The notes under the pieces were generated by a model. The model was not told where the DNA came from and did no database searches. It saw only the letters and a list, made by a program, of their open reading frames with translations. A stretch of DNA of 64,000 nt from positions 1 to 64,000 of the IMG/VR virus record IMGVR_UViG_3300029787_000010; one strand, written 5' to 3'. The first letter of the stretch is position 1. Each line of letters opens with the position of its first letter. This DNA comes from a virus. This document shows positions 594-22,155 of this stretch, piece after piece. The translations under genes were made by a program, and so were the position numbers.

Positions 594-869
594 ATGACAC
601 AACCAAGTAAAGAATCCACCGACGAACTGTTCATGGTGCCTACCCGAAGCACCCGGGACTTGATTGAGTTAGCCATCCGAGAGACTGAGCAACTCTACAT
701 GAACGCTCTCGGTATCGTTGACTCATGCGCTCGTAGCGTGATGAAGAACCTCGCTACCGAAATCCTCACGACCCTTCGCTCCGCTGAGTCCACCCTCCCC
801 GCCGAGGTTCCCCGTGTGTCCTACCACGAAGGAGCCGTCACCATCAGCACCGTTCAATGGGAGGACTGA
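594..869 (+). CDS. Hypothetical protein (91 aa)
   Basis: GGGAG RBS; phage-like codon usage. Confidence 0.75.
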   Translation: MTQPSKESTDELFMVPTRSTRDLIELAIRETEQLYMNALGIVDSCARSVMKNLATEILTTLRSAESTLPAEVPRVSYHEGAVTISTVQWED

Positions 870-871
870 AC

Positions 872-1024
872 ATGACCAACAGGAGATACAGATACTGCAA
901 ATGCTGTGGAGCGAGACTCACAATCTCATTCTCTCAATACACGGACGATTATGCTTGCATCAAATGTGACTGGACCGGAGCGTTTGAGGAAACTTGGAGC
1001 ATGAAACCCTACTGGGAGGAATGA
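872..1024 (+). CDS. Zn-ribbon microprotein (50 aa)
   Basis: Translated by hand: MTNRRYRYCKCCGARL...ACIKCDWTG...YWEE; CxxC pairs; junction motifs at both ends. Confidence 0.75.
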   Translation: MTNRRYRYCKCCGARLTISFSQYTDDYACIKCDWTGAFEETWSMKPYWEE

Positions 1025-1030
1025 AACAGC

Positions 1031-1240
1031 CTCGCAGTCCCCTTTTTGCGGTGTTGTGCGGTGTATGCACTGCATGAAGTATGACCTTTTTCACCGTGGG
1101 GTTATCCTCATTATTCACTACTGTATAGAGAGTATATGTAACAATCTCTTAGTGACTTAAGGAATACCGCACAACCCTTTCCCCCATATTGCATCGTGCA
1201 TTGCATACTCCGCACAACGGTGCAAAATTGACACTGCAAG
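1031..1240. repeat. Long imperfect inverted repeat in non-coding DNA (candidate origin or structured RNA)
   Basis: 1053-1074 versus 1197-1218 are 20/22 complementary; further nested stems; CCGCACAAC occurs 3 times (one inverted). Confidence 0.7.
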
Positions 1241-1256
1241 CCATACTATTTACAGC

Positions 1257-1281
1257 CTTTATAAGGAGACATCAAACACAA
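1257..1281 (+). promoter_or_regulatory. Putative archaeal-type early promoter (TTTATAA)
   Basis: ctttataaggagacatcaaacacaa resembles the core of the 37-bp repeat and precedes the operon starting at 1303. Confidence 0.6.
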
Positions 1282-1302
1282 ACGAACAAAGAGGAATGAA
1301 AC

Positions 1303-2978: not shown

Positions 2979-3988
2979 TGGCATACATCAACGAACGACA
3001 AGAAAACGGACAACTGAAAAACATCGCAATTGTTTGCGACCTAACCAAAGAGCGAGTGGAGAAGGCTGACGACCCCGTTTGGTTTGAACCCACGCTTCGG
3101 ACAAGTAAAGAAGAGCCGGACACAGCGCAGTACGACTTGTTCTGTTGCGCCTACTGCGAGCGAGGCTTCTCACGCAAAGCACTGGACACCTTGCGTTGGT
3201 CGTTTGAAACAGACCGAGACAGTGTGTGGGAGTTCTACTGTGGCGAGTGCGAGCACGACCTTGGCATCTTCCGCCTGCGACAGAAGGCTCACGGGATGTT
3301 GCTCAACTACCGCATGACGGACGACAAGTTCCTCATCCCACACTTCACGAGGGCGAAACGCTACGGGGACATCTACCCTCTTCAAGAAGAGGACACCACC
3401 CGCTACAAGCGTGGCCTTGAACACCGCATCTGCGAGTGGTTTGACAAGCGAGACGAGGCACGAGTAACTGAGTTCTCACTCTTTGACATGACCCACTCCG
3501 AGGAACATGGCTGGGGCGTTGAAGCAGAAGGCGATTGGTGTGACATATGGGACGCTGACCAAGCCATAGCGCAAGGCTTCAACCGATTCATGGACTACTT
3601 CTCTGCACACTTCATGCACTACGACTGGTCTTGGGACCGACGGGGCAACAGCAAAGGCAAGCGAGCCTTCGGCCTCCCCGAATACCACGACTTCCGTGTC
3701 CGTGTCTATGACTGGCGGATGCACTACGAGGATGGCATCGGTGGCTTCAACGCACCTGTCATCTTCCAAGTCATGATGTACTCGGGCGACACCGAAGCCA
3801 TGACACTCACCGTGCTGTGCAACAGCGAGTCCTACGGACAGGATGACCGATGGGACAACACCGACTCGTTCAATGCACTGGACTTGTACATGGCGATGGT
3901 TGAACACATGGGCCTGCGCTACATCAGTGCCACTACTCCGATTCACATCCGCAACAAAGCGACAATCACAACACCAAAAGAGGAATGA
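2975..3988 (+). CDS. Hypothetical protein with N-terminal Zn finger (337 aa)
   Basis: CAYC...CGEC pair. Confidence 0.85.
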   Translation: MMAYINERQENGQLKNIAIVCDLTKERVEKADDPVWFEPTLRTSKEEPDTAQYDLFCCAYCERGFSRKALDTLRWSFETDRDSVWEFYCGECEHDLGIFRLRQKAHGMLLNYRMTDDKFLIPHFTRAKRYGDIYPLQEEDTTRYKRGLEHRICEWFDKRDEARVTEFSLFDMTHSEEHGWGVEAEGDWCDIWDADQAIAQGFNRFMDYFSAHFMHYDWSWDRRGNSKGKRAFGLPEYHDFRVRVYDWRMHYEDGIGGFNAPVIFQVMMYSGDTEAMTLTVLCNSESYGQDDRWDNTDSFNALDLYMAMVEHMGLRYISATTPIHIRNKATITTPKEE

Positions 3989-4143
3989 ACATGAAAAAGC
4001 GACTGAGATTCTCACATCAAGAAGCAACTGTAGTGAACATCACCAACAATGGAAGCACGGTCTTCGTGACTATCCGCTTTCCACACGGTGACGAGATTTT
4101 CCTTGGGCGCATGAACGATGTGATGCTCAACGAGGAGGAATGA
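3985..4143 (+). CDS. Hypothetical microprotein (52 aa)
   Basis: MNMKKRLRFSHQEATVV...LNEEE; fills the gap between two junction motifs. Confidence 0.7.
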   Translation: MNMKKRLRFSHQEATVVNITNNGSTVFVTIRFPHGDEIFLGRMNDVMLNEEE

Positions 4144-4265
4144 ACATGACAAAACTATGCGACATCTGCCACAAAGAACCTGCGCTACCTGACTTCAAGG
4201 TATGCCAAAAGCACCACGACCAAATCATAAGTATGCGTGAAGCACTATTGAACTCGGAGGAATGA
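4140..4265 (+). CDS. Zn-finger microprotein (41 aa)
   Basis: MNMTKLCDICHKEPALPDFKVCQKHH...; CxxC and CxxH. Confidence 0.7.
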   Translation: MNMTKLCDICHKEPALPDFKVCQKHHDQIISMREALLNSEE

Positions 4266-4864
4266 ACATGACTGACACAGATATAGAACAACTGCACCCA
4301 TCACTGGGCAAGAAGAACGACGACATCCCACGGGTCTATGTGGCCTGCCTTGGATGCTACAACGAAGGTGTCCACCACGGCAAGTGGATGGACGCTGACG
4401 AACTGGAGGCCGAATGGGAACGGGAAGGGCGATGCTTCACAAGCGGGTTCTATCCCATGACAGCGTGCAAGAAAGAGCACCACGAGGAGTGGGCCATCCA
4501 CGACACCGATGGAGTGGAGTGTAGCGAGCACCCCGACATCCCCAAACTCATCACAGTTATGCGACTCATTGAGGAACATGGCGAAGGTTTCCGTGAGTGG
4601 TACAACTACTGTCCAAGCCACGCTAACTGGGACAACCCCGAAGAAACATGGCAAGACTGTTACCACGGCGAGTACGATTCCAAGAAAGCCTTTGCCGAAG
4701 AGTGGGCTGAGATGTGCGGGTACCTTGACGACATCACTGACGGATGGGGTCGCCGAATCAGCAACCCACTGCTCCGCTACATTGACTTTGAGTGGTACTG
4801 GCATGCCGACCTGCGCCACCACTTCGCATACTCCAACGGTCATGTGTGGGCGACCAACTACTGA
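4262..4864 (+). CDS. ardA: Antirestriction protein ArdA
   Basis: PRVYVACLGCYNEGVHHGKW, EEWAIHD, YHGEYDS..FAEE and RYIDFE motifs typical of ArdA; acidic. Confidence 0.88.
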   Translation: MNMTDTDIEQLHPSLGKKNDDIPRVYVACLGCYNEGVHHGKWMDADELEAEWEREGRCFTSGFYPMTACKKEHHEEWAIHDTDGVECSEHPDIPKLITVMRLIEEHGEGFREWYNYCPSHANWDNPEETWQDCYHGEYDSKKAFAEEWAEMCGYLDDITDGWGRRISNPLLRYIDFEWYWHADLRHHFAYSNGHVWATNY

Positions 4865-4876
4865 CACGAGACAACT

Positions 4877-4913
4877 GATTTCAACTTCTCTTTATAAAGA
4901 ATCAAAACAATAG
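4877..4913 (+). promoter_or_regulatory. 37-bp repeated promoter-like element, copy 1
   Basis: GATTTCAACTTCTCTTTATAAAGAATCAAAACAATAG, identical to 14513-14549; contains TATA box TTTATAAA. Confidence 0.8.
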
Positions 4914-4937
4914 TAAACCAAACTGGAGGACAAACAT

Positions 4938-6209
4938 ATGAACATACGAACTGCATTGAAAAACATGAACGAAGAACAACGAGTCACCTTTACGGACTGG
5001 CTGAACGAGAAGGACACAGGTAGCCACGGTCACAGTGTGACTGGCATTGACGGCTTTGCTAAGGCTGGCTTCCCACGAGCGTGGCTTGAGCCGATGGTCA
5101 ACCGTCGGTGGTCCAACTTTGTTCAAGTCCCCAAGGGCATCACGAAGTTGGCCAACGACACTGTCAATGGTCAGCCGATTGGATGGCACGAAGGCAGTGA
5201 GCGATGGGTGTTTCTGCTCACACCGAAAGACCAAGAGCGTGGCTACCTTGACAACAACTACCGTACTTGGACACAAAGTCGCACCAAGAAAGTGTGGGCA
5301 TCCCTGCCCGACTACGATGCGTGGAACGACAGTGAGCAAGACGAGTATGAAATTGACTCCATGACTGAACTGCACAAGCAGATTATGAAGCAACACGATG
5401 TTCACCCCGACGCCGAATATTGGCATCACGAAATGATGACCGAAGACAACTGTCGCAACTGGGGCTACAAGCACCCCGGTGTGATGATGGAGTTCCGCAT
5501 CCCCATCCGACCAAGCATGAACGGCTACGGTGACGAGTATCAAGAGTACGAGGTCACCAACAACTTCTACTACATCAAGTACGACGGGACGAAGCGCACC
5601 GAGTTCGTGGACCTCAAACGATACGCTTACTTCGTGATGAAGTCCGAGGAAGAACTTGACTCCCTTGAGGACAAGGTTGCCTTTGTCAAATCAAAGCAGG
5701 GAGAGAGTCCCGACATCGGCGCAATCGTCGGCCTCTTCGGTAGCGGCTATAACAACATTGATTGGCAAGACGATGAGCACAAGCCCCGCCCTGCCGAGGA
5801 CATTGCTAAAGAATTGCTTGCGGTTGACGAAGAAGAGAAGGCATCGTATGGGAAAGCCGTTGACAAGATGCGTCGGCAAATCCCCAACATTGACAACTAC
5901 ATCCGATTCAACGAAGACAAGACTCGCTGGGGCTACGACGACGAGAAGGCTCCACTTGGCTGGACGCTTGAAAACCTCAACTCAATGGGCTACGCCGATG
6001 TGCTGTGGAGCAACAACTTCATGCAACCTTGGGTTGACGGCATCGGCAACAGCAGTGTCATCAGTGCCTTGGCCGAACAGGTAGGTGGCGACACCACCAA
6101 GATTGTTTCACTTGGCCGTGGTTCAGCAGGTCGTGAACTTGCCGCCATCGCTTTGAAGGCGATTGAAGAAAACAAATGGTTCGCTGATTACAGCGAAGAG
6201 GAGGAATGA
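4938..6209 (+). CDS. Hypothetical protein (423 aa)
   Basis: GGAGG RBS; first gene after the promoter repeat. Confidence 0.9.
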   Translation: MNIRTALKNMNEEQRVTFTDWLNEKDTGSHGHSVTGIDGFAKAGFPRAWLEPMVNRRWSNFVQVPKGITKLANDTVNGQPIGWHEGSERWVFLLTPKDQERGYLDNNYRTWTQSRTKKVWASLPDYDAWNDSEQDEYEIDSMTELHKQIMKQHDVHPDAEYWHHEMMTEDNCRNWGYKHPGVMMEFRIPIRPSMNGYGDEYQEYEVTNNFYYIKYDGTKRTEFVDLKRYAYFVMKSEEELDSLEDKVAFVKSKQGESPDIGAIVGLFGSGYNNIDWQDDEHKPRPAEDIAKELLAVDEEEKASYGKAVDKMRRQIPNIDNYIRFNEDKTRWGYDDEKAPLGWTLENLNSMGYADVLWSNNFMQPWVDGIGNSSVISALAEQVGGDTTKIVSLGRGSAGRELAAIALKAIEENKWFADYSEEEE

Positions 6210-6442
6210 ACATGAACGACCACCAAGACAGCGAACACTTCGCCTACGACAAGACATGGGAAGAGATTGAAACCATGCTGGACAGGGCTGAACGCAAACA
6301 GAATCAACATTACACCGCCATGTTGGACGGGCCGAAGAAGAAACGGATGTACCACATGAGGAACTACAAAGCATTGGAGGGCGTGGTCAAGGCTCTTCGT
6401 TGGGTGCTTGGAGATAAAGACATTGACCACCCACTGGAGTGA
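6206..6442 (+). CDS. Hypothetical helical protein (78 aa)
   Basis: Junction motif at 6201; RNYKALEGVVKALRWVLGD. Confidence 0.8.
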   Translation: MNMNDHQDSEHFAYDKTWEEIETMLDRAERKQNQHYTAMLDGPKKKRMYHMRNYKALEGVVKALRWVLGDKDIDHPLE

Positions 6443-6448
6443 AGAAGA

Positions 6449-6664
6449 ATGATTGGACCAACAGCATACGAGATATACTTACAGACGAAGCACGAAGCCA
6501 TGAAGGAATACGCTGTGAAGCACAAAGGCATGCGGTACATCTACTGCTATGACTGGGGGGTTCTGTCCATGTTTGACAGCACCTTGGATTTCAAGAACTG
6601 GTGCTTCGCTGACATGATGGACAACGGCGGCGAGTACGCTGACAGAAAGGAAGTGGTAGAATGA
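6449..6664 (+). CDS. Hypothetical protein (71 aa)
   Basis: GGAGTGA RBS; tight packing. Confidence 0.7.
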   Translation: MIGPTAYEIYLQTKHEAMKEYAVKHKGMRYIYCYDWGVLSMFDSTLDFKNWCFADMMDNGGEYADRKEVVE

Positions 6665-6759
6665 AACCAATTGAAACACGACACGGCACAGCACACCCTA
6701 TCGGTCTTACGACTGACAGCGACGGACAGATGACACTCGTACTGGAGTTGATTGAATGA
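6661..6759 (+). CDS. Hypothetical microprotein (32 aa)
   Basis: MKPIETRHG...LELIE; ATGA overlaps at both ends. Confidence 0.55.
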   Translation: MKPIETRHGTAHPIGLTTDSDGQMTLVLELIE

Positions 6760-7601
6760 AAGCAAAAATGAAATACACGAAGATTGAAAACAAGGACGCA
6801 CGAAAGTGGCTTGAGGTCCTGCTGGAACCACACAACTGGGGCAAGCGAACCTTTGACGAACTGTTGCTGGTGCAACACTACGCACAGAAATACGAGGACT
6901 ACTGGTTCACAAGGAAGAGCACTCATTGGAGTTCCCGTCAAAATGGAGAACTGTTCATCGCTGCTGAACCGAATGTCAAATTGGAAGGGAGCGGACTCCG
7001 TGGTGTGTACGCCGGCTACCAACGCAGGCAGTTCAACATCAAGAGATACATCCACGGTGGCTCAAGCACCGAGGGCCTGCTCTCTTACCTTGCGAAGCGC
7101 AAGGAGCGTGGTGAGGACACCGTGTTCCAACAACAGGTGGACGAATGTGCCCGCCGCCTCAAACTCAACTACGATAAGAACACACTGCACGGCCTTCGGC
7201 GATTCACCGAAGAGAATGTCACCGAGGAGTACATTCGTAACCGTGTGAAGCAACACCTTGTCTCCATGAGTCAAGGCAACAGCAATGGATTGTCACTCAA
7301 CTTTGTAAACTACACGATGTTCTTGACACGCAAGGATATCAGTCGTTGGGAGAGCAGTGTACCCATCCTCAAGCCACAACCTGCCATGAGTGCCGAGGAC
7401 ATCACCACTTACATGCACAACTCACTGAACTACAACCGCCTCAAGCGTGATGGGTTCTCCGACGCACCCATCGCTGCGGCCATTCCGAAAGTGGTTGAGC
7501 ACCACTGGGGAGCCACCGTTCAAGGTATCAAACTCGCTGAGACAGCCGCCCGAAGTTGGTGTGCTGTTTGGACTGAACTGATTGGAGATGAAGAAGAATG
7601 A
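6756..7601 (+). CDS. Hypothetical protein (281 aa)
   Basis: ATGA coupling; RBS. Confidence 0.85.
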   Translation: MKAKMKYTKIENKDARKWLEVLLEPHNWGKRTFDELLLVQHYAQKYEDYWFTRKSTHWSSRQNGELFIAAEPNVKLEGSGLRGVYAGYQRRQFNIKRYIHGGSSTEGLLSYLAKRKERGEDTVFQQQVDECARRLKLNYDKNTLHGLRRFTEENVTEEYIRNRVKQHLVSMSQGNSNGLSLNFVNYTMFLTRKDISRWESSVPILKPQPAMSAEDITTYMHNSLNYNRLKRDGFSDAPIAAAIPKVVEHHWGATVQGIKLAETAARSWCAVWTELIGDEEE

Positions 7602-8014
7602 GCAACGAACAAGAACAAATAGACAAGAAGCAACAGCCGTTCTATCAAGAGTGGACACTGGGACAATTGAAGAACGCAAGGAACGGAGACACCGACCACT
7701 ACAGCCAAGGTAAGAACTGGGACAAACATTGGGGCATGACAGTAGGCGAACTCATTACCCAACTGTCAGCCTACCCACCCAGTCAGCCCATCGCCATCCG
7801 ACGAGATGTAGGGTGGAATGGGATGTGCAACTTTGGCATTGAGGTGGGCGAGGTTGTCGTCCGTGCCGACGGCGACGACGACTACACCCAGTGCCGTGAT
7901 GCAATGAAGAAGGGCGAGATAGACACGATGGTCATGGTTGCACTGATGTGCGAGGGCTACGGTGTTGAGAACATTGAGCCTCACGAGATTGAAGAAGAGC
8001 ACACGGAGGAATGA
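7598..8014 (+). CDS. Hypothetical protein (138 aa)
   Basis: Contains MTVGELITQLSAYPP, a motif common in small phage proteins. Confidence 0.8.
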   Translation: MSNEQEQIDKKQQPFYQEWTLGQLKNARNGDTDHYSQGKNWDKHWGMTVGELITQLSAYPPSQPIAIRRDVGWNGMCNFGIEVGEVVVRADGDDDYTQCRDAMKKGEIDTMVMVALMCEGYGVENIEPHEIEEEHTEE

Positions 8015-8017
8015 AAC

Positions 8018-8428
8018 ATGAACAAAGAAAGCAAATACACAGAACTAACGCAAGCCGAGACAATGAACCGACTGAACTACCTTGTCCAAGTACACAAGGA
8101 CAGAGATTACCCACTCTATGGGGTGAGGTCTTTGAAAATCACGCTGTTCTCACACGGCGACCTTGCACCTGTTGTCATTAGCATGACGAAGGCAAGGGAA
8201 GTCATTCGTGACACTTGGAAAAGAATGCCGCGTGATGCAGAACGCATGGTTGAAAATGGACTATTCGTTTCCGCTATCCCCACAATGGAACTACATCTCA
8301 CCAACTACGGTACACTGTGGCTGTCGGCTCACATTGAACGAGAGGCTGGCCCCGAACTGCAAGCGAAGTGGGACGCTGTTCAAGCGACCCGAGAAGAACA
8401 ATTCCCCGAACACTACGAGGAGGAATGA
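8018..8428 (+). CDS. Hypothetical protein (136 aa)
   Basis: Junction motifs at both ends. Confidence 0.8.
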   Translation: MNKESKYTELTQAETMNRLNYLVQVHKDRDYPLYGVRSLKITLFSHGDLAPVVISMTKAREVIRDTWKRMPRDAERMVENGLFVSAIPTMELHLTNYGTLWLSAHIEREAGPELQAKWDAVQATREEQFPEHYEEE

Positions 8429-8431
8429 AAC

Positions 8432-9079
8432 ATGATTAGGAAATGGATTGAAAAGAAAATTGAAGCACGAGTGAACGAATACCTTGACATCTTGCAGGAG
8501 AACGAATACTTTTCCGCCTTAGAGGTGGACGAGGAAGCGATTGCAGAACATGTGGAGGTTGACCCTGCACTGGTCGCCGAACACATTGAAGCGTCGGTCT
8601 TGGTTGACTACCTTGACCTTGACGACGCACTGGACGACGCACTGGACTACGACCGAGTCGCAGACTATGTGGACATGAACAACCTTGCTGACCACATCTG
8701 CAAGTACGACCTCGCCAGCGAGATTGACAAGCACGACCTCGTTGACTACATTGATACAAGCAACATCGCTTCCGAGATTGAAGTGAACGCACAGGAGATT
8801 GCCGACCACATTGACCTGCAAGACCTCTCCGACTATGTTGCCGACGAACATGCCCTCATCAGCGCACTGATTGACAACACCGACCTCGTGAGGTTGGTGG
8901 GCGAAGAGATTCAAGACAAGGTGGCTGATGCTATCACTGACACCATGAACCACATGGTGAACGAGAACACGACCAAGGTCAACGCTGTCGTTGAGGCACT
9001 GACCTTACTTGAGGACGCATTCTCCGGCGCAGTTGTTCAACTACGCTGGGCACTTGAGAAGAAGGAGGAGAGCGAATGA
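8432..9079 (+). CDS. Highly acidic protein with ~9-aa internal repeats (215 aa)
   Basis: Repeats such as DLASEIDKH / DLVDYIDTS / NIASEIEVN / EIADHIDLQ. Confidence 0.85.
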   Translation: MIRKWIEKKIEARVNEYLDILQENEYFSALEVDEEAIAEHVEVDPALVAEHIEASVLVDYLDLDDALDDALDYDRVADYVDMNNLADHICKYDLASEIDKHDLVDYIDTSNIASEIEVNAQEIADHIDLQDLSDYVADEHALISALIDNTDLVRLVGEEIQDKVADAITDTMNHMVNENTTKVNAVVEALTLLEDAFSGAVVQLRWALEKKEESE

Positions 9080-9243
9080 CTGACACAGAACCACACGATG
9101 ACTGGCAAAATATTGTGAATGCGTACCATCACCTGCTCACAGAAATCAAGCGGTTGCGAGCATGGAAGAAATTGGTGAGCGACATTGTTCAACAGCATGA
9201 TGGTTCACACTTGCGAGAGATGTTGAAGGAGATGATTGAATGA
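9076..9243 (+). CDS. KRLR-family microprotein (55 aa)
   Basis: MTDTEPHDDW...EIKRLRAW...LKEMIE; ATGA overlaps. Confidence 0.7.
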   Translation: MTDTEPHDDWQNIVNAYHHLLTEIKRLRAWKKLVSDIVQQHDGSHLREMLKEMIE

Positions 9244-9569
9244 TTGACACAGACAAATACGAAGGACACAGCCCTGCACCGTGGTATTACAGGCTTGAAA
9301 CTGAGGACAAGATTTGGGATGAACACGGTTCCGTGTTGGACAAGAACATGAACTGCCTTGCTCTCGTTGATGACGGCTCCGAACAGTTCCCCGATGCAGA
9401 CTTGAAACTCATAGCAGACGCACCACTTATCCTTGAAGCATACAAGCGGTTGCGTGAAGAGAACGACAATCGTTGGGTTGTGATTGGAAAGTTGAGGCGA
9501 CAAATCAAGGAACTGCAAGACGACCTTGAAGACTGGATGGCTGGCGAGTACCACGCAGGAAGTGATTGA
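9240..9569 (+). CDS. KRLR-family protein (109 aa) of the HxPxPW...LIADAP small phage protein type
   Basis: GHSPAPW and DLKLIADAPLILEAYKRLRE motifs. Confidence 0.8.
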   Translation: MIDTDKYEGHSPAPWYYRLETEDKIWDEHGSVLDKNMNCLALVDDGSEQFPDADLKLIADAPLILEAYKRLREENDNRWVVIGKLRRQIKELQDDLEDWMAGEYHAGSD

Positions 9570-9737
9570 ATGAAACGAACAGAATGGGAAGCACAAAAGA
9601 GAATGAAAGAAGAGGCGCAAGCCGAAGTCAAGCGGTTGCGTGAAGGTATTCGGCAAATCATAGAACACAACGAGGGTGTTGATGTTGACATGTTCGGCCC
9701 ACAGGTATCGGACAAATTGAAGGAGTTGATTGAATGA
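9570..9737 (+). CDS. KRLR-family microprotein (55 aa)
   Basis: MKRTEWEAQ...AEVKRLREG...LKELIE. Confidence 0.7.
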   Translation: MKRTEWEAQKRMKEEAQAEVKRLREGIRQIIEHNEGVDVDMFGPQVSDKLKELIE

Positions 9738-12335: not shown

Positions 12336-12505
12336 ACATGGAACAAGAAATGAAAATGAAGATACATGAAATTGTAAATTACGCAACACGGACTCTTGAG
12401 AGACACGACGCAGGTGATGAACATTGGGAGACGCTATCGTCTCTCTTACGCTTTCGTGCGAAAGAGTACATCGCTATCTATAATAAAAACAACGAGGAGG
12501 AATGA
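12332..12505 (+). CDS. Hypothetical microprotein (57 aa)
   Basis: MNMEQEMKMKIHEIVNY...NNEEE between two junction motifs. Confidence 0.7.
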   Translation: MNMEQEMKMKIHEIVNYATRTLERHDAGDEHWETLSSLLRFRAKEYIAIYNKNNEEE

Positions 12506-12508
12506 AAC

Positions 12509-12781: not shown

Positions 12782-12787
12782 TGAAAC

Positions 12788-13087
12788 ATGATTGATAAAC
12801 TACCTGCGATAAAACTGACGCCCGAACAAGCACGACACTTCGCTGTCGGTAAGCGAGCGTGGGCTCACCATGGTTGGTCACAGACGCACGACGGAATGCT
12901 TGAAACAATGTACCAAAGGCCCGAAGCCATTTTCCCAGCCACCTTTTGGTGTATGACCATTGACCCCAAAGGAGTAGGCGCAATTTCAACATACGAACCC
13001 AGCAAAGGTCGTTGGGTTACCAAAGAGATATTCGCACCAGTTGACGCTGACGCTATACTGATGTGGGACAAGGAGGAAGAAGAATGA
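12788..13087 (+). CDS. Hypothetical protein (99 aa)
   Basis: GGTGATGAAACATG start context. Confidence 0.8.
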   Translation: MIDKLPAIKLTPEQARHFAVGKRAWAHHGWSQTHDGMLETMYQRPEAIFPATFWCMTIDPKGVGAISTYEPSKGRWVTKEIFAPVDADAILMWDKEEEE

Positions 13088-13296
13088 ACTATGAACGAAT
13101 GACAAGAGTGGCACTATATGTTGCACAAGCAGGAATGGAAGACTGGCCCAAGAGCAGTGTTGAGAACATGGCTGACCAATGTGGAGCCGAAGCATCCTAC
13201 GATTTCTTCCAAGCCTTACAGCGAAAGTATGGCGTTGATTGCAGTCGGCAACTGGAATGGCTGGATGAAATCTACTGGCAAGAACAGGAGGAATGA
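13084..13296 (+). CDS. Hypothetical protein (70 aa)
   Basis: Start moved to ATG 13084 (ATGA overlap). Confidence 0.75.
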   Translation: MNYERMTRVALYVAQAGMEDWPKSSVENMADQCGAEASYDFFQALQRKYGVDCSRQLEWLDEIYWQEQEE

Positions 13297-13299
13297 AAC

Positions 13300-13470
13300 A
13301 TGAAAGGAACAATGATTGCACTACGAAAAGCACAGAAAGAAGTCAAGCAGTTGCGTGAAGAGAACCAACGCCTCCTTGACTACTTGATACAGGTGGCTGA
13401 TGAGTACACCGATGCAGACGGTGTCACATACGAGATTTACTGTGAGTTCGGAGATGATGAAAATGATTGA
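13300..13470 (+). CDS. KRLR-family microprotein (56 aa)
   Basis: MKGTMIALRKAQKEVKQLREEN...; junction motif at 13288. Confidence 0.7.
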   Translation: MKGTMIALRKAQKEVKQLREENQRLLDYLIQVADEYTDADGVTYEIYCEFGDDEND

Positions 13471-13543
13471 CACAAACGCACACAACCTCAAAATCAAAAT
13501 TGAAACAGATGAATACATCTACTGGGAATACACGGAGGCATGA
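13463..13543 (+). CDS. 26-aa micro-ORF, possibly a recombined gene remnant
   Basis: MIDTNAHNLKIKIETDEYIYWEYTEA; start ATGATTGACACA is shared with the 9240 gene. Confidence 0.4.
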   Translation: MIDTNAHNLKIKIETDEYIYWEYTEA

Positions 13544-13546
13544 AGA

Positions 13547-14302
13547 ATGAAAAGAAACAAGATAAAAATAATTGAATTGAAGAATGAAAAAGGTAAGCCT
13601 GTTGAAATGTTGGACTACAACCGTCCAGTTAATCGCAGCCTTGTGAACAAACTGAAAGAAAGCATGGAGAAATACGGCGTACTCTCATCAATCACTGTGT
13701 ACGATAGCGGTGATAAGTACATGGTCGTTGACGGACAACATCGCTGGACGGCAGCGAGTGAACTGGACTTGGTGATACCAGCAATCGTCATCGGCTGGGA
13801 CGCTATGAGTGCAATCGTTGAGATGAACACAATTCAAACCAACTGGACCATGGCGAACTTTGTTGATTTCTTTTCAGCACACACCGACCCTGTGGTCGCC
13901 AAGAATTATAACCTACTCAAACAGAAGAAGCAAGAATGCTCTCCCGCATTGACATACTCTTCCCTTGCGAAAATCTACGGTAAGCCGTATGGTGGCTCCT
14001 CTTTCAAGAAAGGAAAGTGGCGAATCACCGATGAGGCAAGAGGGGACCAGTTCGTGAAGCAGTTGAGTGACCTTGTTGAGTTTCTTCCTTATGCAAGGAG
14101 TGCGAGATTCATTTACGCTTACACCGATGTAGCGTATCACGAAGACTACGACCATCAACGCATGATGAAAAAGTTCAATCAAAATCATGGAGTGTCTTTG
14201 ATAACATCAAGCAATCCCAAGAACTACGGACAAATGCTCACGAAGGTTTACAACTTCCACCAATCCAAAAACTTGGTCATGTTCAAAGCAAGTTGGATTT
14301 AG
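13547..14302 (+). CDS. ParB/Srx N-terminal-domain protein
   Basis: NRPVN...LKESMEKYG...YMVVDGQHRWTAA motif. Confidence 0.8.
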   Translation: MKRNKIKIIELKNEKGKPVEMLDYNRPVNRSLVNKLKESMEKYGVLSSITVYDSGDKYMVVDGQHRWTAASELDLVIPAIVIGWDAMSAIVEMNTIQTNWTMANFVDFFSAHTDPVVAKNYNLLKQKKQECSPALTYSSLAKIYGKPYGGSSFKKGKWRITDEARGDQFVKQLSDLVEFLPYARSARFIYAYTDVAYHEDYDHQRMMKKFNQNHGVSLITSSNPKNYGQMLTKVYNFHQSKNLVMFKASWI

Positions 14303-14326
14303 GCAACACACACGGAGGAATGAAGA

Positions 14327-14509
14327 ATGGTAACAGCAAAAGAAGAACGATGGAGTGAACTGATGGCGAACCTTGAGGGCGCCGTCATGGTAGCGCACAA
14401 GATGATGAGAGAAGACGAGATGACTGCGTTGCAGTACGGTATATTCAACGGCACGATTGCACAACTGGAATCTTTGGCACGAGATTTATTGGAGGACTCG
14501 CACGAGTAG
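14327..14509 (+). CDS. Hypothetical protein (60 aa)
   Basis: GGAGGAATGAAGAATG start context. Confidence 0.7.
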   Translation: MVTAKEERWSELMANLEGAVMVAHKMMREDEMTALQYGIFNGTIAQLESLARDLLEDSHE

Positions 14510-14512
14510 CCC

Positions 14513-14549
14513 GATTTCAACTTCTCTTTATAAAGAATCAAAACAATAG
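14513..14549 (+). promoter_or_regulatory. 37-bp repeated promoter-like element, copy 2
   Basis: Exact match to 4877-4913; intergenic. Confidence 0.8.
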
Positions 14550-14562
14550 GAGACTGAGTAAA

Positions 14563-14931
14563 ATGCCACAATGCAGAGTATGCCAAATTGAATACAAAGC
14601 GGAGTCGCTGAAAAGTGACATTACTGCGAACAAGAAAATCTGCCGGTCTTGTCGGACCGAGCAACGACAAACAACGCTACAACAGAAACAGAACTCCGCC
14701 ATCTACAACGAAGTGATGGCACTGGAGGCCCGTGTTAATCGGGTGGAGGAAACCACTCAATACATTGACACCATCGTGGAGGCGACCATCGCCACCACAC
14801 TTGACACGATGGTGGAATCATTCGTGGAGAGATTGGTCAACGAGAAGGCGACCAAACTCACCGAACAAATAGCCACATTGAATAGCAGGGTGCTGGCCTT
14901 AACAAACAAACTGCAAAAACTGGAGGAATGA
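14563..14931 (+). CDS. Zn-finger plus coiled-coil protein (122 aa)
   Basis: CRVC...CRSC followed by heptad-like helix. Confidence 0.8.
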   Translation: MPQCRVCQIEYKAESLKSDITANKKICRSCRTEQRQTTLQQKQNSAIYNEVMALEARVNRVEETTQYIDTIVEATIATTLDTMVESFVERLVNEKATKLTEQIATLNSRVLALTNKLQKLEE

Positions 14932-15485
14932 AAATGAGAACAAAGCAAGGAGAGAAAGAAACGAAGCGTGGATTTGTGGTGAGGCTACTCACTACCCATG
15001 GTGACTACATTAGCGCAGAAGACGCATGGGCGCAACTGGTGGACAAGCGGGCGACAACCATTCGGTCTGCGACCGAGTTCGGGACAACCGCAAGTTCTGC
15101 CGAAGGCAGCGGGCAACTGAGCAAGAAGCGTGGGGTGAACAGTGAAGGGAAGAGTCGTATGCTTTACGGCCCACCCGGTATCAAGACAGCCATCGGCTAT
15201 CGTGAAGCCACGGTCTTTCCCGATGGGAAAATTGTCGCTGGGCAGAAGTTCGTGAAAGGACTTGAGAAGCACCATGCCAAGGATGCCATTGAGGCAGTAG
15301 TATGGCCAAAGAACCCTGCGGTGACTGACATCCCGTTGGGACAGTTGCTTGAATACCTCGGGACCGACATGGATGATGTCATGAGCGTCATTCGTGATGT
15401 CGTATGCGACCGACCGTTGACCAAACTGCGCAAGGATTACCCCGGACTTGAAGAGATTGTCAAGCGAGTGGCAGGTGTTGAGTGA
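14928..15485 (+). CDS. Hypothetical protein (185 aa)
   Basis: Junction variant at 14923; basic N-terminal half. Confidence 0.8.
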   Translation: MKMRTKQGEKETKRGFVVRLLTTHGDYISAEDAWAQLVDKRATTIRSATEFGTTASSAEGSGQLSKKRGVNSEGKSRMLYGPPGIKTAIGYREATVFPDGKIVAGQKFVKGLEKHHAKDAIEAVVWPKNPAVTDIPLGQLLEYLGTDMDDVMSVIRDVVCDRPLTKLRKDYPGLEEIVKRVAGVE

Positions 15486-16332: not shown

Positions 16333-16877
16333 GCCTACACGAGAACTTTGGCAGTGGCAACGCTGATGCCAACCCCGACCTCAAGCCCAACGACATGGTG
16401 ATGACCCCACGACACATCGCCAAGCAGATGATTGACTTCTACCACATTCACGAATACGAGCGAGTGCTTGACCCGTGTGCTGGCGATGGTGCATTCTTTG
16501 ACCAATACCCCTCACACATCCTTGGGAAGTGGCGCATGGAAATCACAGAAGGCTTGGACTTCTTTGGTTGGAATGTGAGCCGTAGCCCTCACATTGACTG
16601 GATTATCACCAACCCACCCTACAGCATTTTCCCTCAGTTCTTGGAGAAGTGCTTTGAGGTGGCCGACAATGTGGCCCTGCTGATACCGCTTGCGAAGTTG
16701 GTGTCAAGCCTTAAGCGAATCAACATGGTCATGGACTATGGAGGCATTGTGTCAATGCGAGTTATTGGAGCGAGCAAGTGCGGGTTCCCCTTCGGGTTTC
16801 CTGCCGCCGCTATCCACATGAAGCGAGGCTACGATGGCAACACGCTGATTGAGATGTGGCCGGACGAGGAGGAATGA
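16329..16877 (+). CDS. Solitary DNA amino-methyltransferase (probably N6-adenine)
   Basis: MTP, VLDPCAGDGAF (motif I) and IITNPPYS (motif IV); start moved to ATG 16329 after GGAGGTGA. Confidence 0.88.
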   Translation: MSLHENFGSGNADANPDLKPNDMVMTPRHIAKQMIDFYHIHEYERVLDPCAGDGAFFDQYPSHILGKWRMEITEGLDFFGWNVSRSPHIDWIITNPPYSIFPQFLEKCFEVADNVALLIPLAKLVSSLKRINMVMDYGGIVSMRVIGASKCGFPFGFPAAAIHMKRGYDGNTLIEMWPDEEE

Positions 16878-17026
16878 ACATGGGACAAATGAATGATGGA
16901 AGCGAATGCCTACTGTGCGAACTGTGGCAAGACCTTGACAGCACTGACGACTTAGACAAGTGCTGTAAGGAATGCCGAAGCGAGATTGAATGGATGCTCG
17001 CACGACGAAGAGCAGGTGATGAATGA
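16874..17026 (+). CDS. Zn-finger microprotein (50 aa)
   Basis: ECLLC...CCKEC; junction motif at 16869. Confidence 0.7.
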   Translation: MNMGQMNDGSECLLCELWQDLDSTDDLDKCCKECRSEIEWMLARRRAGDE

Positions 17027-18091: not shown

Positions 18092-18865
18092 GAACATGCG
18101 GTTGATGGCTCGCTCTCTTTGAGCCAGCCTATTCTGTAAGGCATCGTAGCCCCTTCCACTGTGGAAATCGTGATATGAATCTTCAATGGGCTCTACGAAC
18201 TTATCAAACGGCGTCCGGTCAATTCGTCTTTGAAGTAAAGACAAATCAATTTCGGGTACATCAAAGTCAACACCGGGGTGTCTGCGACCAGTCCCCCGCT
18301 TTGGTTGAAAGTGACCCGCATCGCCAAAGTCGGGGTCATGAATGAGCACAGGCTTGGGGTCCCGAGGTGAACCTATCCCCGGCTTCCTCAATTGATACCT
18401 GTTCATCAAACCACTGGCACTGTGGTGCTCCATCCAGTTCTGTGGTTTGAGGTCAGTCAAGTTCATCGCTTCAAGAAGTGGCATTTTGTCATATACGCTT
18501 TGTTGAATGATTCTTCCTCTCGCTGTGTCTTCATTCATCCCTAAAGGACTGCCGTCAATTGCTCTACCACGGGGCTGCTGCGACAAAATTGGCAGACTCA
18601 TATCCCCTAACTCTACCGGCAATGACATCCTTTGTTCAATGGGCTGCTGCCCTGCGAATAGTCCAATAGGCATTTGACTGAGTAGTTGGTTGTAGTACAT
18701 CGCATCCAACTGAGAGGGGTTTTTGTCAAGGTCGCTGACCTTCACCACATCGGGGTTTCCTGTTTGACCAAACACCACTTGGTTCATCCCTGCTCCAATC
18801 TGTACTCCTTTGGCTGGCTGAAAGGCCGCCTTCAATATGGACCACGCTATATCAACCGGGTCCAT
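18068..18865 (-). CDS. Protein-kinase-like protein (Ser/Thr type) with an N-terminal AWxxLK leader
   Basis: Ordered motifs IGAGMNQVVF (Gly loop), VVKV (beta3 Lys), TDLKPQNW (catalytic loop) and LIHDPDFG. Confidence 0.72.
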   Translation of the reverse strand: MDPVDIAWSILKAAFQPAKGVQIGAGMNQVVFGQTGNPDVVKVSDLDKNPSQLDAMYYNQLLSQMPIGLFAGQQPIEQRMSLPVELGDMSLPILSQQPRGRAIDGSPLGMNEDTARGRIIQQSVYDKMPLLEAMNLTDLKPQNWMEHHSASGLMNRYQLRKPGIGSPRDPKPVLIHDPDFGDAGHFQPKRGTGRRHPGVDFDVPEIDLSLLQRRIDRTPFDKFVEPIEDSYHDFHSGRGYDALQNRLAQRERAINRMFSHIGLSG

Positions 18866-18886
18866 GTACGAGCCAAGTGCTCGTAC
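18866..18886. promoter_or_regulatory. Perfect 8-bp inverted repeat abutting the kinase start codon
   Basis: GTACGAGC-caagt-GCTCGTAC. Confidence 0.55.
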
Positions 18887-18904
18887 GAGATAACCATTTC
18901 CTAT

Positions 18905-18932
18905 TTCTCTTTAAAAAGAATCAAAACAATAG
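18905..18932 (+). promoter_or_regulatory. Promoter-like repeat, copy 3 (27/28 match to the core)
   Basis: TTCTCTTTAAAAAGAATCAAAACAATAG in a divergent intergenic region; leader hairpin ccggctc/gagccgg at 18946-18972 follows. Confidence 0.75.
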
Positions 18933-19001
18933 TCTACTGGGTTTCCCGGCTCCCCCATTCCAAATGAGCCGGACGAATTAAATACAGGATAGTGAACCAA
19001 A

Positions 19002-20555
19002 ATGAATATGCAGACCGGGACGACAGTGATTGGAAGAGTGACAGAGAGCAGAAAAGACAGGGTGTTTATGGACTACCCGTCCAATGCTGGGGTGAAGAAC
19101 CTCAACATTGAGCGACAGGACATTGAACGCTTTGAATCGTTAGACGACGGCCGAGTGGCCATCACCTTGAGTGGTGCCACAGAAGCCCAACTCTACGGCA
19201 GCAATGCCCCGCTGATTGTCACAGCACAAGACATTGCCATCGTTGAAGCGATGGAATATGGAGAACAAATACCAAACGGAGAGAACAACATGAACGAAGA
19301 ACACAACGACGAGGTGCCAAACTTTGGCACAGAAGAGCGACTGGTGATGGAAGTTGGAGCAGATGGACAGGTGTCGGTGAACGCCGCCGGTCCCTTTGAC
19401 GACTTCCTTTACGCAGGAAACAGAAAGAACAAGGCGACGGCCGACTGGGACTTCCAGCCTACTGAGAAAATGGGCTTTGTCCTGTACGAAGACGAACGAA
19501 GCGGGCAAACTTCGGCGGCGAAGATTGTGGACAACGATGGCAAGCCCATCGTGAAGCACATTTTCAACCCGAACTACGCCAACGAGAAGCGGCCCCTTGG
19601 TGCCCACCTTGGGATGTTCAGCCCGACCTACTACGCCATGCCGTATGCACGGGGCTTCCGTCCCATCTTGGACATGTGTGCCAAAAACGGATGGCCAGCA
19701 AAGGTCTTTGCTTACAGCGAAGGTAAGAACGCTCGCCTTGATGTAGATGTCACCAGCAGTGTTGACTGGGATGCAGCCGCACAGAACAAACTTGGTAGCC
19801 GATGGCAGAACCTTGGCTTTGTGAAAGAGGGCGATTATCGTGTTGGCTTCTCCATCTACAACAGTTTGGACGGGTCCTCATCATTCAAGGTCGCCGCCAT
19901 CGCTCAGCGACTGGAGTGCACTAACGGCATGGTTGTTGGCAAATCACAAACCCTGCTCAAGTTGCGACACACCAAGGGCGTTATGGAGAATTACGACTTC
20001 AACTCACTCGCTGACAAACTTGAACAAGTCATGATGTCAGCCGCTGAGGAACTGATTGAGGTTGAAGCCATGCGCAACATCACCGTCAGCGACGAAGCCT
20101 TTGAGCGACTGATGACGCTGAGTGAGAAAGCCGGCCTCATTACCAAGCCGACTGTTCACCGTGATGACAAGGGAGAAATCACCCACCTTAGCCGTGGCCA
20201 CATGTGGCGAGTCATGGGACAAGGGTGGACCAACCCTGCCAACACATGGGTCCGTGTCCAAGGTGATGACCAACACACCCTCTACCATGTCTACAACATC
20301 CTTACCGGAGCGGTGACTCACAAGCCAATCTACCAAGACAACGAGCACTACCGCAACAAACCACTGGAAGGTAAGACCCTCGGCTTCAACGCCATGGACA
20401 AGAAACTCACTGATACACACACCATGCTCCGCAAGGTCAGCGACAGTGTTATCACTGCAATCGGCGGCGACCCCAATGCGCTGCTTGACCAGTCCGAGTC
20501 AGTCCTTGAGGACCAACTCGCCTCAGTGCCACTCTTCTCGGAGGTAATCTACTGA
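19002..20555 (+). CDS. DUF932-family protein
   Basis: IYNSLDGSSSFKV....RLECTNGMV....LRHTK motif and the TLYHVYNILT..VTH tail typical of DUF932. Confidence 0.8.
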   Translation: MNMQTGTTVIGRVTESRKDRVFMDYPSNAGVKNLNIERQDIERFESLDDGRVAITLSGATEAQLYGSNAPLIVTAQDIAIVEAMEYGEQIPNGENNMNEEHNDEVPNFGTEERLVMEVGADGQVSVNAAGPFDDFLYAGNRKNKATADWDFQPTEKMGFVLYEDERSGQTSAAKIVDNDGKPIVKHIFNPNYANEKRPLGAHLGMFSPTYYAMPYARGFRPILDMCAKNGWPAKVFAYSEGKNARLDVDVTSSVDWDAAAQNKLGSRWQNLGFVKEGDYRVGFSIYNSLDGSSSFKVAAIAQRLECTNGMVVGKSQTLLKLRHTKGVMENYDFNSLADKLEQVMMSAAEELIEVEAMRNITVSDEAFERLMTLSEKAGLITKPTVHRDDKGEITHLSRGHMWRVMGQGWTNPANTWVRVQGDDQHTLYHVYNILTGAVTHKPIYQDNEHYRNKPLEGKTLGFNAMDKKLTDTHTMLRKVSDSVITAIGGDPNALLDQSESVLEDQLASVPLFSEVIY

Positions 20556-20848
20556 TGACAGACGAACGACGAATGACAGCAGAATCAATTGACGATGATG
20601 GCAACTTCAACTACGATGGGAAGCGGTGGAGCCTACTGGGCTCCTCGCTTCCTATCCCCGCCGACGCTTCGTTGTCGGGAGAGTTGGAGCATGAAGAGGT
20701 GCTGGCAGTGGTGAACACCGAAATATCAAAGTGCCCCGTATGTGGCACCGAAGACTGCGCCACTGCGGTCATCATGACTGAGCGTTATCGCATGGTACCG
20801 ACTCGCTGTTGCAGGAAAATCGTATGGTACACGGAGGAATCAAAATGA
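20555..20848 (+). CDS. Zn-binding protein (97 aa)
   Basis: CPVC...RCC. Confidence 0.75.
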   Translation: MTDERRMTAESIDDDGNFNYDGKRWSLLGSSLPIPADASLSGELEHEEVLAVVNTEISKCPVCGTEDCATAVIMTERYRMVPTRCCRKIVWYTEESK

Positions 20849-21537
20849 CGATGGAAGAAGAAATTGGAGCGATACTTGACAGACTACAACCCCACCAAGT
20901 GTGGGACTTGACCGGGCAGGGCCTTGTCTACATGAAGGGGGAGGGTGAGATGCTGACGCTGATTGCCACCTTCAACACCATGGACGCTGCCAAGGTGCAC
21001 GGCGTAGTCAAGGGCGAAGCACTCAAGCGTGGATGGATGGTCAATGACGAGTCTCCCCGTGTCATCCAATCACAGGATGAACAGATGGAGTTCTCGCTTG
21101 ACCTTAAGCGTCAACAGATTGGACAGATGGTTTGTCCCGATGAAGACTGTGACCTACCCATTGCTGCCTATGATTTCCAAAACGCCAACTGGCGGTTCCT
21201 TGGTGACAAGGTAGTGGAGCAGGACGGCGAGGAGTTGTCTTACGAGGACTGGGGTGTTGAGGCATGTTGTCCTGTTTGTGACAATACCATCCTCATGCCA
21301 CCACGGGACTTTGAACTCGTGGTCGGTACTGACGCACTGGAGACTTTCCGAGGGCAGAAGCAGACTTACAGAGTTATGCATCCATCGGAAATCACTGAGC
21401 ACATTGACAAAGGGCATCTGTTCAACAATCATGGCTTGGTCATTCTCGGTACGATTTGCCCAGTGAGTGGCGAGCGACTACCCATTCACCTGCGAGGTAG
21501 AGTGGCTGCCTCATTCAACAACGAAGAAGAGGAATGA
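20845..21537 (+). CDS. Zn-binding hypothetical protein (230 aa)
   Basis: CPDEDC, CPVC, CP; start at ATG 20845. Confidence 0.8.
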   Translation: MTMEEEIGAILDRLQPHQVWDLTGQGLVYMKGEGEMLTLIATFNTMDAAKVHGVVKGEALKRGWMVNDESPRVIQSQDEQMEFSLDLKRQQIGQMVCPDEDCDLPIAAYDFQNANWRFLGDKVVEQDGEELSYEDWGVEACCPVCDNTILMPPRDFELVVGTDALETFRGQKQTYRVMHPSEITEHIDKGHLFNNHGLVILGTICPVSGERLPIHLRGRVAASFNNEEEE

Positions 21538-21540
21538 AGA

Positions 21541-22155
21541 ATGACAGTTAAGCGGATTCAGCGAATGTGTCAGCGGATAGGCTGCACTGAAACATGGGAT
21601 GCAAGGCCATCCGACGGGAAGCGATACTGTAGGGAGTGCATCCCTCAGTCATCCAGTGGTCCAAAATATCCTTTCCGTATGCAGAAGCAATGTGCCTGTG
21701 GTGCTAAGGAGATTAAAGAGATTCATAGTGAGCAGGAACGAGTCGCACCATTTGAGTGCAAATCATGCACCGATGCTTCTGCAAACTACAAGTGGCATGA
21801 AATGCAACTGCTTTACCTTGTCATGTTAAATGATGACTTCCCCGCCCATGAGTTCGTGAGACAAGGAGTGTTCAAGAACAAGGAAGAATACTATGCATTC
21901 CGAACTTTTACAAAAGAAGTCATGCAGATTGACTTGGATTGGACCAACACGCACCCCGGCTACAAACGAATTAAGTGGGGAAAGCCAACATGGTCATGGG
22001 GCACCCTTGCCGACAATCATGCCGTTATCAAGCGTTCACCTGTACCTGTGCCACCCGGACCAGCAATTGGTACGGTCGCACCCGACTGTACGGTCGCACC
22101 CGACTTTCTTCACAAAGTACAGTTGTATGATACAAAAAGGAGAAATGAAGAATGA
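21541..22155 (+). CDS. Double Zn-finger protein (204 aa)
   Basis: CQRIGC..CREC and CACG..CKSC. Confidence 0.75.
   Translation: MTVKRIQRMCQRIGCTETWDARPSDGKRYCRECIPQSSSGPKYPFRMQKQCACGAKEIKEIHSEQERVAPFECKSCTDASANYKWHEMQLLYLVMLNDDFPAHEFVRQGVFKNKEEYYAFRTFTKEVMQIDLDWTNTHPGYKRIKWGKPTWSWGTLADNHAVIKRSPVPVPPGPAIGTVAPDCTVAPDFLHKVQLYDTKRRNEE
22070..22105 (+). repeat. Perfect 18-bp tandem duplication (in frame)
   Basis: GTACGGTCGCACCCGACT x2. Confidence 0.95.

Follow-up and report, generated by a model that had tools for sequence, protein, structure and literature searches.

How do magroviruses, which are among the most abundant archaeal viruses of the surface ocean and have uncultured hosts, gain and lose accessory genes? 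This acquisition and turnover was previously undescribed, and the question is raised by the left end of the IMG/VR virus record IMGVR_UViG_3300029787_000010, a linear record of 104,980 bp that is estimated to be 98% complete. We analyzed its first 64 kb (positions 1 to 64,000; hereafter the window). In the leftmost part of this stretch, small genes meet at a short repeated joint, GAGGAATGAA(A)CATG, comprising a Shine-Dalgarno (SD) site, a stop codon and a start codon, which an initial annotation had proposed to be the crossover site of a gene-cassette shuffling system. Assignment of the virus to the magroviruses, i.e. viruses of Poseidoniales (Marine Group II archaea), is plausible from its gene content, its thermosome and the use of the same joint in Poseidoniales genomes. 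The most solid and useful result of our analysis is the lateral exchange of cassettes between diverged magroviruses.

A letter-identical joint confined to the accessory region

The 14 exact copies of GAGGAATGAA(A)CATG that had been noted at accessory gene boundaries, together with variants, are borne out by counting: GAGGAATGAA is found 19 times as an exact match, always on the + strand, whereas dinucleotide shuffles yield 0.19 matches on average and never more than 2. Seven of the 14 continue as AACATG (GAGGAATGAACATG) and seven as AAACATG (GAGGAATGAAACATG); variant continuations are AATATG at 11717, AAAATG at 14923 and AGAATG at 14315 and 21529, and the further variants GAGGCATGAAGAATG and GAGGACTGAACATG lie at 13535 and 861. 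Throughout the whole 104,980-bp record, GAGGAATGA occurs 19 times in the forward orientation and never in reverse, and every copy falls within 1016-21529. A scan of the other 83 kb, which hold the replication and structural modules, found zero copies, in agreement with the earlier remark that the replication and tail modules lack the motif. When IMG/VR was scanned with exact 15-mers, the matches listed were single, unrelated and at chance level only.

The identity extends to 'free' letters, i.e. those with no pairing, stop or start role. The pattern GAGG-NN-TGA-N2-3-ATG fits 22 sites, and in 14 of them the free letters agree (AA, followed by AC or AAC), for which the chance is 6e-25 (binomial, regional base composition). 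Identical 15-mers before start codons recur 6, 5, 2 and 2 times in the accessory region; elsewhere, the - strand has one such pair and the + strand core genes have none, although the latter likewise use GGAG/GAGG and ATGA overlaps, and the rest of the virus uses GGAG-N-ATGA overlaps. The extended identities reported between some copies are real, comprising 21 nucleotides (nt) shared by 4128 and 12069-12089 and the pair 8000/14309, to which we add 22 nt shared by 12071-12092 and the joint at 16869. Orphan copies are likewise present as described at 1291, 2820 and 14315, the latter two following earlier stops at 2812-2814 and 14300-14302 (TAG), and at the half-site 1016 an AGC replaces the ATG and leads to no gene. 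That these sites retain letters with no stop or start role there counts in favor of exchange between copies. The accessory genes themselves all lie on the + strand with zero intergenic space, and most of those flanking the motif have no Pfam family.

Single cassettes are permuted, deleted and shared between viruses

A search with the SNF2 protein led to six related contigs, and gene 8432-9079 led to one more, G006; the whole records of G001, G002, G003, G004 and G006 were compared, and all relatives are IMG/VR metagenome contigs. G001, G002, G003 and G006 each feature 12-21 motif copies, gathered in one cluster of 13-23 kb on the coding strand. G004 and G005 lack the motif, though their SNF2 proteins are closer to that of the window than are those of G002 and G003.

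G001 is collinear with the window genome over 22-105 kb at 82-95% nt identity, and over 1.3-17.8 kb it holds the same genes in permuted order, with some genes unique to each genome. The core of G006 is distant, with amino-acid (aa) identities of 53% for SNF2, 46% for DUF932, 59% for the family-B DNA polymerase (PolB) and 59% for the thermosome (64-72% nt). Its accessory region nevertheless has eleven cassettes in common with the window at 76-98% aa (84-97.5% nt), arranged in a different order. Homology starts at (A/G)GGAGGAATGAA(A)CATG and stops immediately past the following joint, with unrelated sequence on either side. Because these ORFans resemble each other much more closely than do the polymerase or capsid genes, the alignments imply that single cassettes moved laterally, and recently, between diverged viruses.

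Insertions and deletions of one or two genes have the same boundaries. The 55-aa gene 12338-12505 is missing from G001 and is bracketed by motif copies at 12327 (12327-12340) and 12497 (12497-12511), the latter being also where G006 homology starts. The 204-aa gene 21541-22155 is missing as well, flanked by GAGGAATGAAGAATGAC (21529-21545) and GAGAAATGAAGAATGAC (22139-22155). A two-gene indel, 12788-13296, is bracketed by ...ATGAAACATG, with its left repeat TGATGAAACATG at ~12779-12790 and its right repeat at 13288-13302. Around the ParB_N-like gene 13547-14302, the left repeat is the variant GAGGCATGAAGAATG (13535-13549) and the right repeat is the orphan copy GAGGAATGAAGAATG past the TAG (14315-14329), and 22/28 flanking letters match. 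Conversely, at the joint 12076-12089 G001 holds one extra gene, inserted exactly there between two motif copies. The one- and two-gene indels thus feature joint repeats at both ends, with 17-22/28 letters matching and no scars, which are the footprints that would be expected of exchange between short direct repeats. A related-locus search with gene 1948-2814 gave no match.

The joint as a coupling site used at host gene boundaries

Within the joint, the SD core GAGG lies 7-8 nt upstream of the ATG, and the archaeal 16S 3' end carries CCUCC. The TGA ends a called open reading frame (ORF) in 15/19 copies, or 16 if a dubious 36-aa ORF before 1291 is included, and it is because the joint closes the upstream gene that so many proteins end in ...EE*, as the initial annotation had recognized. 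The same 14-mer is present in 65 copies in 101 Poseidoniales genomes, against 1 for a reversed control; of 13 host copies sampled, 12 are followed by an ORF of 50 codons or more, and most also terminate an upstream ORF. The GAGG spacing, the closure of ORFs by the TGA and the host's use at gene boundaries together identify the motif as a genuine SD, stop and start coupling joint that is read by host ribosomes, and dependence of downstream translation on upstream translation is predicted. A hairpin or palindrome was sought at the joints: the motif is not palindromic, and eight 60-nt windows gave z-scores of -1.4 to +1.2 with no common helix. Overall, the joints are weakly structured or unstructured, and A-rich.

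These data qualify the initial annotation in two respects. Its view that plain coupling is insufficient draws support from the orphan copies and the free letters, but coupling is a real function of the motif, one also used by hosts, and is not to be dismissed. The second respect concerns core and host genes. No equally strict motif appears among the + strand core genes, but hosts do use the same joint, at ~0.4 per Mb, i.e. ~1000x more sparsely than in the accessory region of the virus, where the 14-mer form reaches ~400 per Mb.

Breakpoints fall at gene joints of several classes

Homology-block ends lie <=20 nt from a gene start in 27/36 cases vs G001 (random mean 3.4) and in 21/28 vs G006 (random 2.6), and they lie inside the motif itself in 15/36 (random 1.1) and 12/28 (random 0.9), respectively. 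Other joints are exchanged too. A second class, GGAGTGAAGAAGAATGA (6436-6452, + strand), with an ATGA overlap, is a breakpoint vs both G001 and G006. The same class recurs as GGAGATGAAGAAGAATGA (7584-7601, + strand), which in G001 links the 6756 homologue to the 6449 homologue; a GGAG(A)TGAAGAAGAATGA joint thus connects 6756|7598 in the window and 6756|6449 in G001, and contigs from three sequencing runs feature two further upstream neighbors starting at 7584. A third class, GGAGATGATTGAATGA (9228-9243, + strand), recurs at 6744-6759 and 9722-9737. Exchange takes place at the gene joints of this region; among their several types, GAGGAATGAA(A)CATG is the most frequent and the longest, but it is not a unique site.

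Joint letters also differ between lineages, in what may be called dialects. G002, G003 and other relatives prefer AATATG, and in twelve further loci (identified with a DUF932 profile; ten new contigs) the favored repeated joints include GGAGGAATGAATATG, GGAGGAATAGATATG and AGAGGAATAAATATG. L246 and G004 (L010 8649-9020), which lack the GAGGAATGA joint, instead repeat GGAGGTGACGGC(A/G)TG, in up to six copies in L246, and this joint matches the longer canonical SD GGAGGTGA. Lineage-uniform letters that do not pair with rRNA fit homogenization by repeated exchange better than they fit a universal translational optimum, although this is no proof.

Exchange between joints and its alternatives

We consider it probable that coupling joints, within one genome or between co-infecting ones, recombine through their short homology or allow template switching, and that cassettes move in this way. 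The left 20 kb would comprise a hyperplastic accessory region, probably early and anti-defense, in which small co-oriented genes are strung into few operons and connected by a handful of stereotyped coupling joints. Because the same 14-22 nt recur at many boundaries, both within a genome and across co-infecting relatives, these joints could act as short-homology crossover points, and unequal or non-allelic exchange, or template switching, between them would delete, insert, reorder and laterally transfer whole genes. Each recombinant product would be in frame and would keep its own ribosome site, and repeated exchange would homogenize the joint into the lineage dialects. The molecular job of the motif would then be translation, and its linker role an evolutionary side-effect. 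We infer the causal role of joint homology in exchange, the need for it at crossover, the acting enzymes and the early expression of the region. A more ambitious proposal, that a virus-encoded activity (e.g. the PD-(D/E)XK or ERCC4 nuclease with an SNF2 annealing-type helicase) targets or favors the joints, in a dedicated recombinase-free cassette exchange whose dialects decide trading partners, seems to us decidedly unlikely. As regards candidate machinery, the SNF2 protein, the PD-(D/E)XK nuclease and the ERCC4 nuclease are confirmed as present, but the Sak4/RecA-like and PC4-like proteins of the initial annotation were not detected in the Pfam/PHROG scans run.

Several observations weigh against exchange guided by joint homology. 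Motif joints are not enriched for breakage over other joints, either vs G001 (broken/conserved 11/2 for the motif and 10/4 for others; Fisher p = 0.65) or vs G006 (11/0 and 8/1; p = 0.45), nor is there an excess between G002 and G003 (3/3 and 13/13), where start calls are imperfect; since motif joints break no more often, gene boundaries as such, rather than the motif, predict breakpoints. One exchange in G006, 8432 homologue|6449 homologue, has only ~6 nt in common (GAATGA). Moreover, boundary-precise recombinants alone are expected under selection, as the region has no intergenic space. Sequencing runs from 2014 to 2025 hold 96-98% of sampled words, such that the window arrangement is stable on that timescale, and within-population joints at the motif, which were sought in short Logan contigs only, were not seen. 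The relatives, finally, are metagenome assemblies in which some mis-joins at repeats are possible. The crossover claim of the initial annotation accordingly survives in part: breakpoints far exceed random placement, single-gene indels are bounded by direct repeats, and cassettes moved between divergent cores, but there is no enrichment over other junctions. The same split applies to the comparison of synteny breakpoints in relatives that it had proposed, as these coincide with the motif relative to random positions and not relative to other gene junctions. Crossover specific to this one motif is not upheld, given that other joint classes serve equally.

The most serious competitor holds that the motif is only an optimal initiation or coupling context for highly expressed early genes, with joint uniformity arising because translation is under selection, or because each gene brings its ribosome site along, and with random illegitimate recombination from which selection keeps the breaks at boundaries. 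The identical joint at real host gene boundaries suits this account, as do the unstructured, A-rich character of the joints, the equal breakage of non-motif junctions and the exchange with ~6 nt of common sequence. It has more difficulty with the core genes, which use SD sites and ATGA overlaps and yet share no recurrent 15-mer, and with the free letters, whose identity in 14/22 sites (~6e-25) serves neither pairing nor a stop or start. Viruses of the same group use other repeated joints, orphan copies retain a useless TGA, and the indels are precise and scar-free with 17-22/28 letters matching at both ends, all of which leads us to regard translation as the whole explanation as unlikely. Alternatively, the motif may be the recognition site of a dedicated factor, either a nuclease or recombinase, as in a true integron-like system, or an RNA-level endoribonuclease or repressor that times early genes. 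T4 provides precedents, in that RegB cuts GGAG in early ribosome sites and RegA binds early ribosome sites. Confinement of the motif to one expression or plasticity class of genes and its conservation beyond the SD, stop and start would be natural for such a site, and the virus encodes the PD-(D/E)XK nuclease, an ERCC4+HhH nuclease and the SNF2 helicase. This is nevertheless very improbable, as neither a tyrosine nor a serine recombinase is encoded in the 98%-complete genome, the motif forms no palindrome or hairpin, exchange occurs equally at other joint classes, and the dialects differ between relatives with the same nucleases.

Could the shuffling be only apparent, produced by chimeric assembly of co-occurring strains at short repeats? 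The relatives' metagenomic origin invites this suspicion, and repeats of 21-22 nt would correspond to the smallest k of some assemblers. The common cassettes, however, are diverged (63-98%) rather than identical and so derive from distinct genomes, and G001 and G006 would each need at least 10 chimeric joins within 20 kb, with the other 80 kb collinear. A metagenome scan with gene 8018-8428 yielded no virus other than this one, in an independent assembly that reproduces 7436-10925 at 99.97% in the same order, and contigs from other studies each span 3-5 joints. Two contig joints do touch a motif copy (1581>12070 and 12090>14919); each has sides of only 21 letters, and so these are probably other viruses' copies of the joint. 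An assembly artifact is therefore extremely improbable. Short-homology exchange between coupling joints is the reading that we carry forward, and a new recombination mechanism or a new integron-like system is not established.

Joints and small genes along the region

The remaining joints, all on the + strand, are given here in order. The variant GAGGACTGAACATG at 861-874 is followed by the half-site GAGGAATGAAAC (1016-1027), which ends a 55-aa ORF (857-1024) and gives way to a T-rich stretch. The orphan copy GAGGAATGAAACATG at 1291-1305 is the earliest joint downstream of a TATA-like box (~1258); no convincing gene ends at its TGA, and it starts gene 1303-1944. This gene meets gene 1948-2814 at 1936-1950, a breakpoint vs G001, and the orphan copy at 2820-2834, which starts gene 2832-2978, is a breakpoint vs both G001 and G006. 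A 337-aa gene and a 50-aa gene are connected by GAGGAATGAACATG at 3980-3993, and the joint at 4135-4148, which lies within the 21-nt identity described above, connects the 50-aa gene to a 39-aa gene. Homology to G001 and G006 starts at 4257-4270, before the ArdA-like gene 4268-4864. Breakpoints vs both relatives also fall at 6201-6214, between a 423-aa and a 76-aa gene, and at 8420-8434, before gene 8432-9079. The joint at 8006-8020 precedes gene 8018-8428, a cassette that is absent from G001 and 79% identical (aa) in G006. Adjacency is kept in G001 at the variant GAGGAATGAATATG (11717-11730), after the SNF2 helicase gene, and at the variant GAGGAATGAAAATG (14923-14936). At 16869-16882, G001 and G006 each hold other genes between the two flanking cassettes.

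Two of the genes in this region merit separate mention. The homologue of the ArdA anti-restriction protein (Pfam E = 6e-23), found here in what is presumed to be an archaeal virus, is a mobile cassette and is 75-78% identical (aa) to those of G001 and G006. A small gene at 9238-9645 (genes 9240-9569 and 9570-9737), which has the motif ...DADLKLIADAPLILEAYKRLREEN, is covered at a contig depth of ~600x vs ~7x for its flanks in two marine runs. Many variants differ in internal length (skips of 120-137 and 353-364 nt), and several alternative neighbors occur both upstream and downstream. The gene seems to be common to very many genomes, and small paralogues with a KRLRE motif lie at 9076, 9570 and 13300. 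Some called ORFs were set aside. A 498-codon antisense ORF, 1375-2871 on the - strand, opposite genes 1303-1944 and 1948-2814, was judged spurious from the strand composition (the coding strand is A-rich) and from the motif-led + strand genes, which have homologues in relatives; + strand ORFs at 18175-18967, opposite a 265-aa gene on the - strand, were treated likewise.

A 59-nt repeat with promoter-like features is a separate element, present in three copies in the region (4860-4918, 14496-14554 and 18879-18937, + strand), with a diverged copy at genome position ~104688. It features a TATA-box-like TTTATAAA and lies 30-70 nt before the next + strand ORF start, and its 28-nt core, TTCTCTTTATAAAGAATCAAAACAATAG, is the same in two of the copies; TATA-like repeats stand at ~1258, 4886 and 14522. 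In G001, the 4862-4940 copy of the repeat sits between different genes. This repeat may represent a second kind of mobile boundary.

Genome context

The genome encodes PolB, an SNF2 helicase, a DUF932 protein, an RFC-like AAA ATPase and a thermosome, in addition to a PD-(D/E)XK nuclease and an ERCC4+HhH nuclease. The coding strand switches from + to - at ~39 kb. The closest cellular thermosomes to the viral one include those of Poseidoniaceae archaea, at 40-42%. A search of the GenBank phage collection with 1-22000 gave zero nucleotide matches, and among GenBank phages the only matches to PolB are from haloarchaeal viruses (23% aa). Two contigs binned in a bacterial metagenome-assembled genome named 'Parvibaculum sp.', L159 (NZQM01000180.1) and L160 (NZQM01000043.1), encode thermosomes that share 61% and 49% identity with that of the virus; these are probably mis-binned magrovirus contigs.

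Beyond the accessory region, one 5,487-codon ORF (43309-59772, - strand) is kept in all relatives at 54-91% aa and is presumably a giant structural or tail protein. A two-gene unit at 39128-40107 (- strand) is 78% and 96% identical (aa) to genes at ~98.5-99.5 kb of G006, a different genome position; because the cores share only 50-60%, this unit appears to be another laterally moved module, outside the motif region. At the border of the replication module, the window (24219-24502) has one copy of a 90-aa gene (24227-24499) and a DUF3846 gene, and in their place G001 (reverse-complement 85059-85589) has two paralogues of that 90-aa gene in tandem; the tandem pair could be a product of unequal exchange.

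Relation to known systems

The locus provides a defined 20-kb region in which viruses with no more than 50-60% identity in their core proteins trade single genes, always at a few stereotyped joints. The traded genes include an ArdA-like anti-restriction protein, a ParB-like protein and a methylase fragment, and the joints offer a concrete, testable rule for locating the fast-evolving, probably anti-defense gene pool of magroviruses. A literature search for ribosome-site joints as recombination linkers found nothing specific, and a text search of two magrovirus papers found no mention of Shine-Dalgarno sites, recombination or shuffling.

Ordinary translational coupling accounts for the SD site at canonical spacing, for the stop a few nt from the next start and for the use of the joint at Poseidoniales gene boundaries. 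It would not yield 14 letter-identical 14/15-mers confined to one region, and leaves unexplained both the orphan TGA that closes nothing and the homology blocks that end inside the joint. The integron, to which the initial annotation likened the region in an integrase-free form, is matched in its co-oriented arrays of single-gene cassettes of unrelated functions, most of them presumably promoter-less, in the repeated boundary element at each junction and in cassette content that varies between relatives. The joint, however, is not an imperfect palindrome or hairpin as attC is; it overlaps coding sequence and the ribosome site, and no attI-like site was identified. Searches of the 98%-complete 105-kb genome for a tyrosine recombinase (PF00589) and a serine recombinase (PF00239) gave no match, with positive PF00589 controls. 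Integron membership thus fails on the integrase and on attC structure, and the likeness is one of analogy only.

Lambdoid phages are closer in principle, with short conserved gene-boundary sequences proposed as crossover points that lead to mosaic genomes. Clark and colleagues, writing on HK620 in J Mol Biol in 2001, reportedly described such boundary or 'linker' sequences at module junctions, and De Paepe and colleagues, in PLoS Genet in 2014, are said to have described relaxed short-homology recombination by phage recombinases; phage-encoded recombination systems tolerate very short or diverged homology. Their linkers join multi-gene modules of temperate phages, whereas the viral joint recurs ~20 times and joins single small genes.

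The nearest relatives of the joint in behavior are the promoter-early stem-loops (PeSLs) of T4-type phages, repeated elements that run from an upstream stop to a downstream SD and start (Arbiol et al. 2010, PMC2839356; Comeau et al. 2014, PMC4122927). PeSLs are concentrated in hyperplastic regions by ORFans, are nearly absent from core modules and bound indels or replacements between relatives, changes that have been read as homologous exchange between copies; mini-circles have also been demonstrated (PMC2839356, PMC4122927). The viral joint is likewise a short repeated regulatory element from an upstream stop to a downstream SD and start, with all 19 copies in the 1-21.5 kb hyperplastic region, mostly beside genes that have no Pfam family, and none in the core, and it likewise bounds indels and replacements between close relatives. 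It differs in comprising only 14-22 nt that hold an SD, a stop and a start; it has neither a promoter nor a stem-loop terminator or attenuator (no significant or common structure), because its genes are presumably coupled inside operons. The promoter-like 59-nt repeat is a distinct element and may be PeSL-like itself, as the nearer structural analogue, and the virus is archaeal (magrovirus-like), not a bacterial myovirus. By this analogy the joint appears to work like a PeSL but is not one, because both defining components, promoter and stem-loop, are absent. Linker-mediated modular shuffling, known from T4-type phages, would thereby extend to archaeal viruses, in which a bare ribosome-site, stop and start joint can serve as the linker.

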